DNA of 64,000 bases. It comes from Planctomycetota bacterium. GTDB taxonomy: Bacteria > Planctomycetota > PLA2 > JAEUHO01. Both the position numbers and the translations under genes were made by a program. Shown piece by piece: positions 34,999 through 38,407 of this stretch. Numbering within the stretch: position 1 is the stretch's first letter; every line of letters starts with the position of its first letter. The notes beneath the pieces are model-generated. The model was given only the letters and a program-made list of their open reading frames with translations, ran no database searches and had not been told where the DNA came from. The stretch covers positions 128,001 through 192,000 of the forward strand of contig CBDCWP010000034.1 of NCBI GenBank assembly GCA_965223505.1, written 5' to 3'.

Positions 34999-35474
34999 TG
35001 GCGGGCAAGTACTACCGGAGCTTCGAACACCTCCTCAAGCCGGACCCGGTCTACGGCGACCTCAACGTCGCCAAGTTCATCAGCTACATCATGCTGGACG
35101 GCAAGCGTTCGACCGCCGAGAAGATCTTCTACGACGCGCTGAAGGAGATCGGCAAGCGCGTCGGTGACCGCGAGCCCATCGAGGTGTGGCGTCAGGCGAT
35201 CGACAACGTCAAGCCCATGGTCGAGGTGCGCAGCCGTCGTGTCGGCGGCGCGAACTACCAGGTGCCCGTGCAGGTCAGCGGCAAGCGCCAGCGCGCGCTC
35301 GCGTATCGCTGGTTGCTCGAAGCGGCCCGCGCTCGCAAGGGTCGTCCCATGCGCCGCGGTCTCGCGGAAGAGCTTCTGGCCGCCTACAACAAGGAAGGCG
35401 GCGCCTACCTCAAGCGCGAGAACGCCCACAAGCAGGCCGAGGCGAACAAGGCCTTCGCCCACTTCGCCTGGTAA
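34998..35474 (+). CDS. rpsG: 30S ribosomal protein S7
   Basis: SRRVGGANYQVP and AEANKAFAHF motifs. Confidence 0.99.
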   Translation: MAGKYYRSFEHLLKPDPVYGDLNVAKFISYIMLDGKRSTAEKIFYDALKEIGKRVGDREPIEVWRQAIDNVKPMVEVRSRRVGGANYQVPVQVSGKRQRALAYRWLLEAARARKGRPMRRGLAEELLAAYNKEGGAYLKRENAHKQAEANKAFAHFAW

Positions 35475-35571
35475 GCGGGCGACGCAGGGCGGCGCGCTGC
35501 GTCGTCGGCGTCGTCGTTGCGTGGCAGACCACGCGGCCTCCTAGCCTCCTTGCATCGCATCCACCCTGCGC

Positions 35572-35711
35572 CGCCCGCGGCGAACAAGGTGAAGCGGCAC
35601 GCGACGAAACAGATCGCTTGAAGCGTACGAACGAGCCTTACGCGCCCGCGGCGAACAGGGTGGAGCGGCACGCGACGATACAGTTTGTTCAACACGTTGA
35701 ACGAGCCTTAC
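35572..35711. repeat. Degenerate tandem duplication of about 70 bp
   Basis: CGCCCGCGGCGAACA(A/G)GGTG(A/G)AGCGGCACGCGACGA(A/T)ACAG, then 15-16 variable nt, then GAACGAGCCTTAC, at 35572-35641 and 35643-35711. Confidence 0.85.
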
Positions 35712-35720
35712 CATTCGCGC

Positions 35721-36284
35721 ATGAAGCGAACGCATCTCGTGCTCATGGTCGCAGCCCTGTTGATGGGAGGCTGCTCGTCCGGCGGGACTGGTGGAAAGGC
35801 GCCCTCGGCAGGGTCGGATACGGGTAGATCGACGAGCGATCCGCGCGTCAAGAGCTTCAAGGGGCAGCCGGCACCGGCGCTCTCGGCCGACGGACGCATG
35901 GCCAGCGCGAACGCGCCCGCCGGACTCGACGGGTTCAAAGGGCGAACCGTGTTCCTCATGTTCGCTTTCCCGCGGTGACCCGCCTGCCGGGCCATGATGC
36001 CCCACCTGGTCAGGTGGCAAGAAACGTACCGCTCCGAAGGCCTCGACATCGTCTACGTCGACGACGGCCGGCGCGACTCGCTCGTCTCCGCACAAGAGAT
36101 GGCGCGCAACAACCCCTTCACCGTCTTCCATGACACCTCCGGCGCGTCGAATCAGACGTACGGGATTCGCGCGTATCCGACCGCCTACATCCTCGACCGG
36201 AACGGCAACGTCATCTGGGAAGGCATCCCCGTCTTCAACACCTTCACCACTGAGGTGGCGATCCTCGCCGCGCTCGCCCGGTAG
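35721..36284 (+). CDS. TlpA/redoxin-family lipoprotein selenoprotein (U-P-A-C); in-frame TGA at 35976-35978 read as Sec
   Basis: Lipobox LMGGC; GQPAP..L, FKGRTVFLMFAFPR-TGA-PACRAMMPHL and YGIRAYPTAYILDRNG (cis-Pro loop). The two ORF-track fragments are in frame. Confidence 0.85.
35998..36019 (+). promoter_or_regulatory. Putative bacterial SECIS hairpin
   Basis: CCACCT (36002-36007) pairs with AGGTGG (36012-36017), loop GGTC, extended by TG/CA; the loop is 29 nt after the TGA. Confidence 0.6.
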
Positions 36285-36368
36285 GGGATGGGATAGGGGG
36301 TGGCAGCCCTGATCCTCGGTCGTGCCAAGTGTGTTTACGGCATCAGCCGAGGAAGGAACTGCCACCCC

Positions 36369-37415
36369 ATGACTGCGTACCACGTCGGAATCGACCTGCA
36401 CAAGAGTGTCGCCCAAATCTGCGTCCGTGATGCGAAGGGCGAGATCGAAGAGGAGCGGCGGTGGCGCCTGCCGGATCGAAAGGCGGCCGCGGCGCTGGTT
36501 GCGTTTCTTGGCACCTACGGCGGCGGGCGCTTCGCGGTGGAAGCGTTGGGCTGCAACCGCTGGTTCGTGCTGGCCTGCCGCGAAGCGGGTTTGGAGATGC
36601 TTGTGGTGGACGCCACGAAGCTCGATCTGAAGAAGCAGGGCAAGAAGACGGATCGACGCGACGCCCAGGAGATCTCGCGCCGGCTGTACCTTGGCGACCT
36701 GGACCGCTACGCACTGACCTACTTCGCCACCGAAGCCGAGTTCGGCCAGCGCAAGGTGTTGCGGGTTCGGCATCAGCTCGTTCAGCATCGAACCAGCGTG
36801 CTGGCGCACATCCGCGGCATGCTCAACGCGTACCTGCTGCGAGCGCCGGTGACGCAGCTGTACACCAAGCGCGGGATCCAGTGGCTTCGCGAGCAGCGAC
36901 TGGGTGATGAGAACCAGGATCTGGCGCTGCAGTCGCTGGTGGATGTCGTTGCGGCTCTGCAGGAGCGCATCGAGAAGCTCACCGCTCGAATCCGCGAGTT
37001 GGCCGAGCAGGACGAAGTCTCAGGCTGGATCGTTCGGAATCTGCCACAGGCGGGAGCCCAGACGGCTCTGACGCTTCAAGCTGAGTTGGGTGACGCAACC
37101 CGCTTCCGCGGTGCTCGACAGATCTCGAGCTATGGGGGTGTCGTTCCACGCGTTTCGGCCTCGGCGGATCGAGCGCACCACGGCCGCATGACCAAACGCG
37201 GAAACGCCGAGTTGCGTTGGGTGCTGGGGCAATGGGCGGTTCGGTTGCTGGCCTTCGACCCAGAGGTGAAGGCGTGGGCACAGCCGATGCTCAGGCGCAT
37301 GCACCGCAACAAGGTTCGAATGGCGCTTGCACGCCGGCTACTGGTGGGCGTGTGGGTGATGTTCTCGCGTGGCGAGGTGTTCTCGCTGCGTCGGTGCCTA
37401 GGCCAGGCTGCCTGA
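36369..37415 (+). CDS. IS110-family transposase/recombinase (DEDD RuvC-like + Transposase_20)
   Basis: HVGIDLHK, AVEA and KTDRRDA (DEDD); AELGDATRF, YGGVVPRVSAS and GRMTKRGNAELRWVL. Confidence 0.93.
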   Translation: MTAYHVGIDLHKSVAQICVRDAKGEIEEERRWRLPDRKAAAALVAFLGTYGGGRFAVEALGCNRWFVLACREAGLEMLVVDATKLDLKKQGKKTDRRDAQEISRRLYLGDLDRYALTYFATEAEFGQRKVLRVRHQLVQHRTSVLAHIRGMLNAYLLRAPVTQLYTKRGIQWLREQRLGDENQDLALQSLVDVVAALQERIEKLTARIRELAEQDEVSGWIVRNLPQAGAQTALTLQAELGDATRFRGARQISSYGGVVPRVSASADRAHHGRMTKRGNAELRWVLGQWAVRLLAFDPEVKAWAQPMLRRMHRNKVRMALARRLLVGVWVMFSRGEVFSLRRCLGQAA

Positions 37416-37625
37416 GCGAACGCACTGAGAGAGAGGAAGCGAAACCAGGAATCGGACACCAACGGGCGCGTACTCCGGCGGGCCGCTGAGCGCATCAGCT
37501 CGTGTAGGCGATTGAGAGGCGCGTCCGACTCCCCCTCATGACGCCGCCCGAATAGGCGAGCTCGAAAACCCGAGTGGACGGATCCGACCCTGGCGACGCG
37601 GAAAGGACGCACGGCCGACAGAAAA
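37416..37625 (+). ncRNA. Candidate bridge/seek RNA encoded in the 3' non-coding end of the IS
   Basis: Long non-coding stretch after the transposase with nested stems (AGCTCG 37497-37502 / CGAGCT 37557-37562; GGCG/CGCC; TGAG.GG/CC.CTCA) and short matches to the target and donor. Boundaries are uncertain. Confidence 0.55.
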
Positions 37626-37646
37626 GGGCTTGCCATTCCCTAAACC

Positions 37647-37710
37647 GGCGACCCTTGTGGTCGCCCAATCGGCCCGTCCCTGATCGAGCGGCCACGAGGG
37701 CCGCCCCGAC
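37647..37710. repeat. Remainder of the interrupted REP plus its inverted partner (REPIN-like doublet)
   Basis: GGCGACCCTTGTGGTCGCCC at 37647-37666 and GAGCGGCCACGAGGGCCGCCCCGAC at 37686-37710. Confidence 0.8.
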
Positions 37711-37723
37711 ATCGACCGCCGAT

Positions 37724-38407
37724 TCACGACCGCGGCCGCAGGACCTGTTGCCGGCGCTTGAACCAGAACGGAACGTACAGCAGTGCGTAGAGCACGACCG
37801 ATAGCGCCTCGGCAACGAGGATGTAGTACGGCCACGGTCCGAAGTAGTCGAGCGGCGTCGCCGAATCAGGCTTCTCGCGCAAGAACATGTAGTTCGTGTC
37901 CGCCATCCAATTGACGCCCGCCATCACCAACGCCACGACGTTGACCGCCACGAGCGCACGCCAGACCGCCCCCGGCCGCGGTGGCAGCCCGAAACGGAAC
38001 GCGACGCCCACCGCGGCCACCGTCAAGGCGCCGTGCTTCACGAAGTAGGCGATCACGACCAGCAGATCGCGATGGTCCGGCAGGTCGGGCGTGACGATCG
38101 CGAGAAACGCGCCCGACGCGCCCCACAGGTAGGTGAGCTCGGCCATGAGCCGGTTGCGCGTCAGCAACGCGGCGATCGCAACGCCGACGCTGATGTCGCA
38201 CAGCGCCAACGGCGCCGCAGGACGCCAATCGCCGCCGTTCAGCAGGAACTCGCCGACCGACTCGACCGCGACGCCGAAGACGAGCAACAGTGTGATCACC
38301 CAACGCAGCGGCGTCTCCGGCAGGAACGACGCCCGGACCAAGAACACCGACGCCGCGGCGACGATCGCGACGATGACGCCGATCTCCGACGCGCCGACAT
38401 CGGGCAT
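37724..38407 (-). CDS. YwaF/TMEM164-like integral membrane protein
   Basis: PLALCD, TYLWG..GA..A..TPD, YFVKH and TNYMFLREKP...LDYFGPWPYYI motifs. The longer ORF-track extension is a shadow of fusA. Start uncertain. Confidence 0.85.
   Translation of the reverse strand: MPDVGASEIGVIVAIVAAASVFLVRASFLPETPLRWVITLLLVFGVAVESVGEFLLNGGDWRPAAPLALCDISVGVAIAALLTRNRLMAELTYLWGASGAFLAIVTPDLPDHRDLLVVIAYFVKHGALTVAAVGVAFRFGLPPRPGAVWRALVAVNVVALVMAGVNWMADTNYMFLREKPDSATPLDYFGPWPYYILVAEALSVVLYALLYVPFWFKRRQQVLRPRS

Follow-up and report, generated by a model that had tools for sequence, protein, structure and literature searches.

Guide RNAs of the IS110 family of insertion sequences (IS), including its IS1111 group, were described in 2024 and are under development as programmable recombinases. 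Guide segments have been shown experimentally for the seekRNAs of ISEc11, ISPa11, ISKpn4 and ISEc21 (Siddiquee et al. 2024, PMC11187229), and RNA guides have been shown experimentally in IS621 (Durrant et al. 2024, PMC11208160). We analysed a stretch of 64,000 nucleotides (nt) from a Planctomycetota bacterium (contig CBDCWP010000034.1, positions 128,001 to 192,000 of the forward strand), to which we refer as the window and whose numbering we use throughout, and we present the results for one element at positions 36288 to 37646. We conclude that it is very probably an active IS1111-type member of the IS110 family with a bridge/seek-type guide RNA encoded in its 3' non-coding region. All comparisons with published systems refer to the sections of the respective sources that are covered here.

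According to PMC11187229, IS1111 elements have transposases of 330-350 amino acids (aa), carry their long non-coding region downstream of the gene and possess subterminal inverted repeats as well as a promoter that forms in the circle. In their seekRNA the match to the top strand lies 5' of the match to the bottom strand, which is the reverse of the IS110 type. The present element resembles ISPa11, which targets repetitive extragenic palindromic (REP) sequences, as well as ISEc11, ISKpn4 and ISPst6: it has a DEDD transposase of this length, a downstream non-coding region and subterminal repeats, and it likewise occupies one position in a repeated foldable target, without duplication beyond the overlap, with the same order of matches and a putative promoter across the joined ends. 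The covered sections of PMC11187229 describe the matches to the target, and a match to the donor end such as the AAACC reported below does not appear in them. The named IS1111 members are distant in their transposase (24-33% identity), and the RNA of the present element is predicted from its sequence.

The comparison with IS621 (PMC11208160; Hiraizumi et al. 2024, PMC11208158; PDB 8wt6) shows both shared and diverging features. In both cases a single RNA carries a target loop and donor-binding nucleotides and the core has 2 bp, the left guides pair with the bottom strand and the right guides with the top strand, and bases adjacent to the guides match the partner DNA in a handshake-like manner. 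The RNA of IS621 is located at the 5' (left) end, with the left guide first, whereas that of the present element is located at the 3' end, with the guides in reversed order. All four IS621 guides include the core, whereas in the present element both left guides are followed by CG and the DNA core is mostly GG. The IS621 handshake is on the top strand (PMC11208158), whereas the copy of the left end that we describe below is on the strand of the left guide (bottom). Finally, the similarity to the IS621 protein is limited to the C-terminal domain and no right donor guide was found in the present element. For IS1111 elements, a bridge RNA was predicted in the right end of 93.0% of cases (PMC11208160, a work that includes 274 ISfinder entries). 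Judged by the figure legends, these predicted RNAs have the nucleotides that bind the donor within a multi-loop and not in a simple internal loop, which fits the location of AAACC between the helices P4 and P1 of the fold described below.

Element boundaries and insertion site

The element and its insertion site consist of the following parts:
36280..36285, + strand: left target, the left half of the interrupted REP (GGTAGG here; TGTAGG is the commonest REP form)
36286..36287, + strand: left copy of the GG core, from the comparison of occupied and empty REPs
36288..37646, + strand: insertion sequence, IS110 family, IS1111 type (1359 bp without the core)
37647..37668, + strand: right copy of the GG core and right part of the REP (right target, REP hairpin)

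A DNA search of the element's own genome (5.15 Mb, 44 contigs) returned four full copies and one rearranged fragment. Compared with the present copy over the 1359-bp body, two of the copies are without differences and the third has one change, at 36298; the element is apparently active. The four copies, when aligned, have xGTAGGGG/ATGGGATAGG in common at the left junction (the slash marks the element end) and CCCTAAACC/GGCGACCC at the right junction, with CCCTAAACC/GGCGACCCTTGTGGTCGCCCAA as the longer form. All of them are inserted at the same position of the REP, between (T)GTAGG and CGACCC, and the GG core is common to both junctions. The empty REP reads GGGG; in the occupied one, GGGG stands at the left junction and GG at the right junction, and the two junctions thus overlap by 2 bp (GG). 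The uninterrupted site, GTAGGGGCGACCC, occurs 92 times in the genome. Across the four copies and the 92 empty sites we therefore observe what is typical of the IS110 family, namely site-specific insertion with a 2-bp core and without a longer duplication of the target. This gives (T)GTAGG-GG-CGACCC as the target and AAACC-GG-ATGGGA as the junction of the donor (the circle); the original prediction, which was made from the sequence of the window and proposed a guide RNA in the 3' end of the element, had defined target and donor correctly, as judged by the flanks of the copies and the uninterrupted sites.

The 22-mer at 37647..37668 is part of a REP-type repeat and is preceded by (T)GTAGG when uninterrupted. 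With at most 3 mismatches it is present at 133 places in the genome, 4 of which adjoin the IS. Of 75 uninterrupted REPs, 43 carry a T directly 5' of GTAGG and the others carry C (17), G (8) or A (7). In four DNA runs the Logan contigs break at 36280/36281 and at 37669 and the IS is covered at about fivefold the depth of its flanks, which fits a repeat of about five copies. None of the Logan contigs of these four runs joins the two element ends, and none spans an empty site at this locus.

Several further observations concern the fragment and the REPs. The rearranged fragment (contig C40:226626-227215; L005, L006) combines the first 403 bp of the element with 188 bp of the transposase gene in opposite orientations, and its left junction likewise reads xGTAGGGG. 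The REPs form two subfamilies with a common GTAGGGG head, one with GCGACC stems (92 sites) and one with GCAGCC stems (130 sites), which are often neighbours in arrays. The element was found solely in REPs of the GCGACC type (4/4 copies). At the REP loop (37655-37658 and the matching places in L002-L004) the occupied REPs show CCCTTG three times and CCCATG once, all without the loop C, while 75 empty REPs of the same subfamily include 61 with CCCTCG and 12 with CCCTTG. The non-C loop base at occupied sites could reflect a target preference beyond the guides or could be due to chance.

Conserved fold of the 3' non-coding region

Relatives were collected from two sources. Scanning metagenome contigs with an alignment of 48 relatives yielded 80 loci and genome collections contributed 6 more; a genome collection scanned with the single protein gave 2 relatives and, among 401 sampled genomes of the phylum, relatives were present in 4 other genomes. 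We kept the 76 of 86 loci in which the stop codon is followed by 220 nt or more. The sequences homologous to 37444-37598 were then aligned with MAFFT, which after removal of four exact duplicates gave an alignment of 73 distinct sequences including the present element; column numbers below refer to it. The transposases of the aligned loci are 44-64% identical to the present one, with L042 as the closest (64%). We also built a covariance model from the alignment. The alignment delimits a conserved structured region with the following parts:
37452..37587, + strand: conserved structured RNA, the core of the predicted bridge/seek RNA (covariance model match, E 2e-30)
37452-37456 with 37583-37587, + strand: closing helix P1 (68.2% paired)
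37463..37527, + strand: predicted target-binding domain made up of P2, an internal loop and P3
37463-37475 with 37516-37527, + strand: helix P2 (core 96.6% paired, two-sided changes at 8/8 core pairs)
37488-37491 with 37498-37501, + strand: hairpin P3 (84.9% paired)
37540-37547 with 37556-37563, + strand: hairpin P4 (37540..37563; its two parts are 96.6% and 93.3% paired)

RNAalifold proposed P2 and P3 unaided, and P1, the outer part of P2 and P4 were added by inspection, so that 28 pairs were tested. Across the alignment 87.0% of the 1998 cells hold standard pairs compared to 69.2% in shuffles, and none of 500 shuffles reached the observed value. When the partners are slid by 1-3 columns the pairing drops to 31-41%. 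Two-sided changes were observed in 357 cells. Compensation was assessed by helix as well: 10 of the 11 RNAalifold pairs in P2 and P3 show compensatory changes, as do 5 of the 7 pairs of P4, and two-sided changes occur at 4 of the 5 pairs of P1. The minimum-free-energy fold of the present sequence over 37444-37598 contains all 28 family pairs, and the nested stems that had been proposed for this region were in substance right.

An Rfam scan of 35400-38000 at E <= 1 gave no match. Our covariance model matched 82 places over the 87 sources searched, including 5 contig-truncated loci outside the training set. In the element's own genome its matches were exactly the four IS copies, with no orphan copies. 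ISPpu9 differs in this respect: it and ISPpu10 (Pseudomonas putida; PMC12288879, bioRxiv 10.64898/2026.03.19.712850) are IS110-family elements that insert into REPs, and in ISPpu9 a gene for a small RNA lies downstream of the transposase gene and has extra orphan copies.

Two further pairings were considered. We dropped an alternative partner for the 5' strand of P1 in columns 155-158, which overlap the donor guide, as the pair of sequences L068 and L034 shows covariation with columns 168-173 instead. A fifth helix between columns 109-112 and 157-160 (ACUC at 37528-37531 and GAGU at 37573-37576) is 56.8% paired and was left as possible.

Covariation with target and donor sequences

For each locus we extracted two junctions, the left one with 8 nt of flank, the core and 11 nt of the left end, and the right one with the right end, the core and 12 nt of flank, both anchored on conserved end motifs. 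Mutual information was computed for every RNA column against every junction position, and the sets used for the permutations were non-redundant by guide sequence. The segments concerned are as follows:
37480..37487, + strand: GGGCCGCU, right target guide (predicted function), on the 5' strand of the P2/P3 internal loop
37503..37508, + strand: TGTAGG, left target guide (predicted function), on the 3' strand of the same loop and in the sense of the left target
37509..37512, + strand: conserved CG (37509-37510), then AT, identical to the first two bases of the left end
37528..37539, + strand: ACUCCCCCUCAU, junction between P2 and P4, where symmetry would place a right donor guide
37566..37572, + strand: AAACC (37566-37570), left donor guide (predicted function), directly 3' of P4 and followed by the conserved CG

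The seven strongest signals of the scan comprise five left-flank positions, which pair up with columns 81-85, and two right-end positions, which pair up with columns 154-155; columns 82-85 account for four of the five strongest. Flank positions -1 to -5 correspond to columns 85 to 81 in the same sense and are 67-92% identical to them (n=49). The left target guide matched the flank of its own element at 4.22 of 6 positions compared to 1.71 for other elements, a value not reached in any of 2000 shuffles (n=40). The covariation across homologs that the original prediction had named as the check on TGTAGG as left target guide is thus present, and the same is true for the left donor guide, AAACC. 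In 92-95% of 60 sequences, columns 152, 154 and 155 are identical to the right end of their own element. The right-end positions -1 and -2 go with columns 155 and 154 (92-95%, among the top seven) and position -4 goes with column 152 (95%, lower in the list). Over the whole guide we counted 4.62 of 5 matches to the own end compared to 2.75 to the ends of others (0/2000 shuffles, n=16 distinct guides).

The third segment is antisense. Right-flank positions +3 to +7 are complementary to columns 48 to 44 in 48-72% of cases, a signal that is blurred by a register shift of 1-2 bases between subclades. Taking the reverse complement of the right target guide, the longest exact match averaged 5.95 in the own flank compared to 3.29 in the flanks of others (0/2000 shuffles, n=56). 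In the control on the sense strand the values were 3.38 and 3.11, and 25 of 2000 shuffles reached the own value (n=56). Over a length of 9 nt the homologous segment of L042 is complementary to the flank of L042 without a mismatch. In the present element GGGCCGCU would form 6 Watson-Crick pairs and 1 G-U pair with the top strand GGCGACCC (37647-37654), with 1 C-A mismatch. The right target guide precedes the left one in all aligned homologs, which is the order of the IS1111 type. Complementarity to both strands of the target that covaries across relatives is what characterizes seekRNAs and bridge RNAs, and the claim that the 3' non-coding end holds a guide RNA of this type with separate target and donor segments is upheld by the homologs.

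No right donor guide was found. None of the columns, including those of the P2-P4 junction, covaries antisense with the left end, which varies little and leaves this search with low power, and among the 5-mers that are complementary to the left end, none is shared at the same column by more than 4 of 55 sequences. Two candidates were rejected: CCCUCC in the P2-P4 junction would have to leave the second left-end base mismatched and shows no covariation, and columns 14-17 failed as well.

A conserved CG follows both left guides, as had been noted for the present element. It is present after the left target guide in 69 of 73 RNAs (columns 86-87) and after the left donor guide in 67 of 73 (columns 156-157, 37571-37572). 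The DNA core is GG in 44 of 49 left junctions and in 35 of 69 right junctions. Three RNAs have UG instead of CG, and 4 of their 6 junctions have a core that starts with T. Furthermore, columns 88-89 (37511-37512, AU) resemble the first two bases of the left end of the same element, with 1.64 of 2 matches compared to 1.28 after shuffling (0/5000). A similar but weaker trend was observed after the donor guide (0.75 compared to 0.47, 3/5000). This two-base copy of the left end may, as far as the sequences suggest, make a handshake-like donor contact. It is possible, if rather doubtful, that the clade follows a variant guide logic with a core mismatch at a fixed C, a handshake with the left end on the bottom strand and no right donor guide in the RNA; this view is drawn from about 80 loci from metagenomes.

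Transposase, element ends and putative promoter

The remaining parts of the element are the following:
36292-36297, + strand: hexamer GATAGG at the -10 position (in the family, -10-like TATAGA)
36294..36309, + strand: left subterminal inverted repeat (10/13 complementary to the right repeat, ungapped)
36369..37415, + strand: DEDD transposase gene, 348 aa (Pfam PF01548, PF02371)
37626..37642, + strand: right subterminal inverted repeat, by direct measurement
37630-37635, + strand: -35-like hexamer TTGCCA
37642-37646, + strand: terminal AAACC, the left donor

The domain pair of the IS110 family is present in the transposase, with PF01548 (DEDD_Tnp_IS110, the N-terminal DEDD/RuvC-like domain) at residues 6-155 (E 5e-11) and PF02371 (Transposase_20, the C-terminal domain) at residues 222-302 (E 2.8e-19). 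A protein search returned 562 relatives at E <= 1e-30, the best of them 79% identical. By tblastn, with pairwise identities in place of a tree, the transposase is 24% identical to those of IS5075 and IS4321 and 33% identical to that of ISHvo10 over 96-97% of its length, and IS621 and ISCro4 align with residues 195-318 only (C-terminal domain, E 2e-5). The non-coding regions measure 231 nt downstream (37416-37646) and 81 nt upstream (36288-36368) of the gene, and a long downstream region of this kind is a trait of the IS1111 group. The same holds for subterminal inverted repeats of about 7-17 bp, and those described here are complementary at 9 or more of 13 positions in 35 of 66 homologs; a generic inverted-repeat finder did not have this pair among the 25 longest pairs it listed.

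At the -35 position 39 of 63 homologs have TTGAC, and in 28 of 63 it is combined with TATA at a spacing of 17 nt. The hexamers of the present element, TTGCCA and GATAGG, are weaker than those of the family. A scan of 36200-37800 for sigma-70-like promoters found none, and no terminator-like site was found in the 3' region.

We propose the following mechanism. The closing helix P1 would hold two domains, the target-binding internal loop of P2/P3 and the AAACC domain 3' of P4. The 5' strand of the loop (37480-37487) would pair with the top strand at the right target and its 3' strand, (U)GUAGG (37503-37508), with the bottom strand left of the core. At the GG core, the DEDD transposase loaded with this RNA would recombine AAACC-GG-ATGGGA, the junction of the circle, with (T)GTAGG-GG-CGACCC of the REP. 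When the ends are joined in the circle, a promoter would arise from a -35 in the right end, a 17-nt spacer and a -10 in the left end, and from it the transposase gene and, by read-through, also the RNA would be transcribed.

Alternative explanations

Several points weigh against our interpretation. P1 is only 68.2% paired in the MAFFT alignment; this deficit is probably in part due to misalignment, as MAFFT is blind to structure. The folding energy of 37416-37660 is no better than that of shuffled sequences (z = +1.54; 187 of 200 fold equally well or better), and we did not use single-sequence folding energy as evidence. The permutation statistics ignore the kinship among the homologs; co-changes of guides and junctions recur in many separate subclades. 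The right target guide of the present element has the C-A mismatch and the G-U pair at all four occupied sites, while the REPs that it would match perfectly (GTAGGGGCGGCCC, GCGGCC type) number 4 and are all unoccupied. From each of the two abundant REP subfamilies, GCGACC (92) and GCAGCC (130), this guide differs by one mismatch. Given this imperfect complementarity, its assignment leans more on the columns that it occupies in the family alignment. The model with four guides is incomplete here, as a right donor guide in the sense of IS621 was not found. Transcription, processing, binding by the transposase, directed recombination and the circular intermediate are steps that we infer by analogy with the described systems.

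Could the guides be arranged as in IS621? The original prediction assumed this arrangement and named TGTAGG, CGCC, AAACC and ATCC, with left before right, as the four guides. All four strings are at the places given for them (TGTAGG at 37503-37508, AAACC at 37566-37570, ATCC at 37582-37585 and CGCC at 37542 and 37545, CGCCC at 37545), although AAACC occurs three times in the region, also at 37442 and at the element end, 37642. Its two left guides are borne out by the homologs, whereas its two right guides are not. CGCC(C) at 37542-37549, for which the role of right target guide had been proposed, forms the 5' strand of P4, where the columns are 93-97% paired and change in a compensatory manner. 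It is another segment, columns 44-50, that shows antisense covariation with the right flank, which moves the right target guide to 37480-37487 and reverses the assumed order to that of the IS1111 type. ATCC, proposed as the right donor guide, overlaps the 3' strand of P1 and fits the left end in 2 of the 55 homologs with a readable left end, namely the present element and L042; 8 homologs keep ATCC though their left end begins with GGAA. An arrangement like that of IS621 is therefore highly improbable. The caution that matches this short may be due to chance was justified for three of the strings: in 5000 dinucleotide-preserving shuffles of the 231 nt, AAACC occurred in 37%, ATCC in 63% and CGCC in 97%, so that these could be judged only by comparing homologs, whereas TGTAGG occurred in just 0.8%. 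The frequency of the three strings in shuffles and the ordinary folding energy are also what one would expect if all matches were accidental and the region a mere spacer between the transposase gene and the element end. Yet both its sequence and its structure are conserved across transposases that are 44-64% identical, and the guide columns covary with the flanks, so that we assign the spacer explanation the smallest chance of all.

A somewhat larger, though still small, probability goes to the possibility that the structure acts as DNA, or as a 3' element that binds the transposase or stabilizes the mRNA, with the sequence identities reflecting a need for homology at the recombination sites. 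That the folded strand is RNA is read here from the sequence only, by which a fold of RNA and a fold of single-stranded DNA are not separable, the inverted repeats at IS1111-type ends could be read by a protein, and the right donor guide was not found. Against it, pairs in four helices change in a compensatory manner, which indicates a single strand that is folded, and the three segments track the target or end of their own element, two in sense and one antisense, as in the proven guides (PMC11187229, PMC11208160).

Left neighbourhood of the element

To the left of the element lies a gene for a thioredoxin-like lipoprotein (35721-36284, + strand) with an in-frame TGA at 35976-35978, at the place of the first Cys of a CxxC motif (FPR-U-PAC-R). 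Read through this TGA, the gene gives one Redoxin/AhpC-TSA protein of 187 aa. A hairpin, CCACCU-GGUC-AGGUGG, is located at 36002-36017. The genome has a tRNA-SeC (C43:10939-11037) and a gene for SelA (E 9e-131); the Pfam domain SelB-wing_2 was not found in it, using a model that matches only E. coli among 14 controls. From its sequence the protein is a candidate selenoprotein. The TAG stop of the gene lies inside the REP half at the left junction of the IS. Further to the left, between rpsG and the thioredoxin-like gene (35560-35700), a motif of some 60 nt is present twice in direct orientation, GCGCC(G/C)CCCGCGGCGAACA(A/G)GGTG(A/G)AGCGGCACGCGACGA...

Implications

One more guide RNA in the IS110/IS1111 elements was to be expected and is not surprising. 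The present case contributes a well-populated and divergent clade, with at most 33% protein identity to any named element that we found, in which the fold and three guide segments, including the reversed order of IS1111, can be read from natural covariation. The results also indicate that guide positions guessed from short matches in a single sequence are unreliable, as two of the four fell in conserved stems. Should they hold in experiments, three details would bear on the differences between IS1111 and IS621: the fixed CG, the copying of two bases of the left end and the lack of a right donor guide. Under the variant guide logic, if true, the fixed C would build a mismatch into the first core position, where the DNA mostly has G, and the right donor side would be read via the subterminal repeats or by the protein. 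A right target guide that is one mismatch away from each of the REP subfamilies could keep many sites usable for the element.

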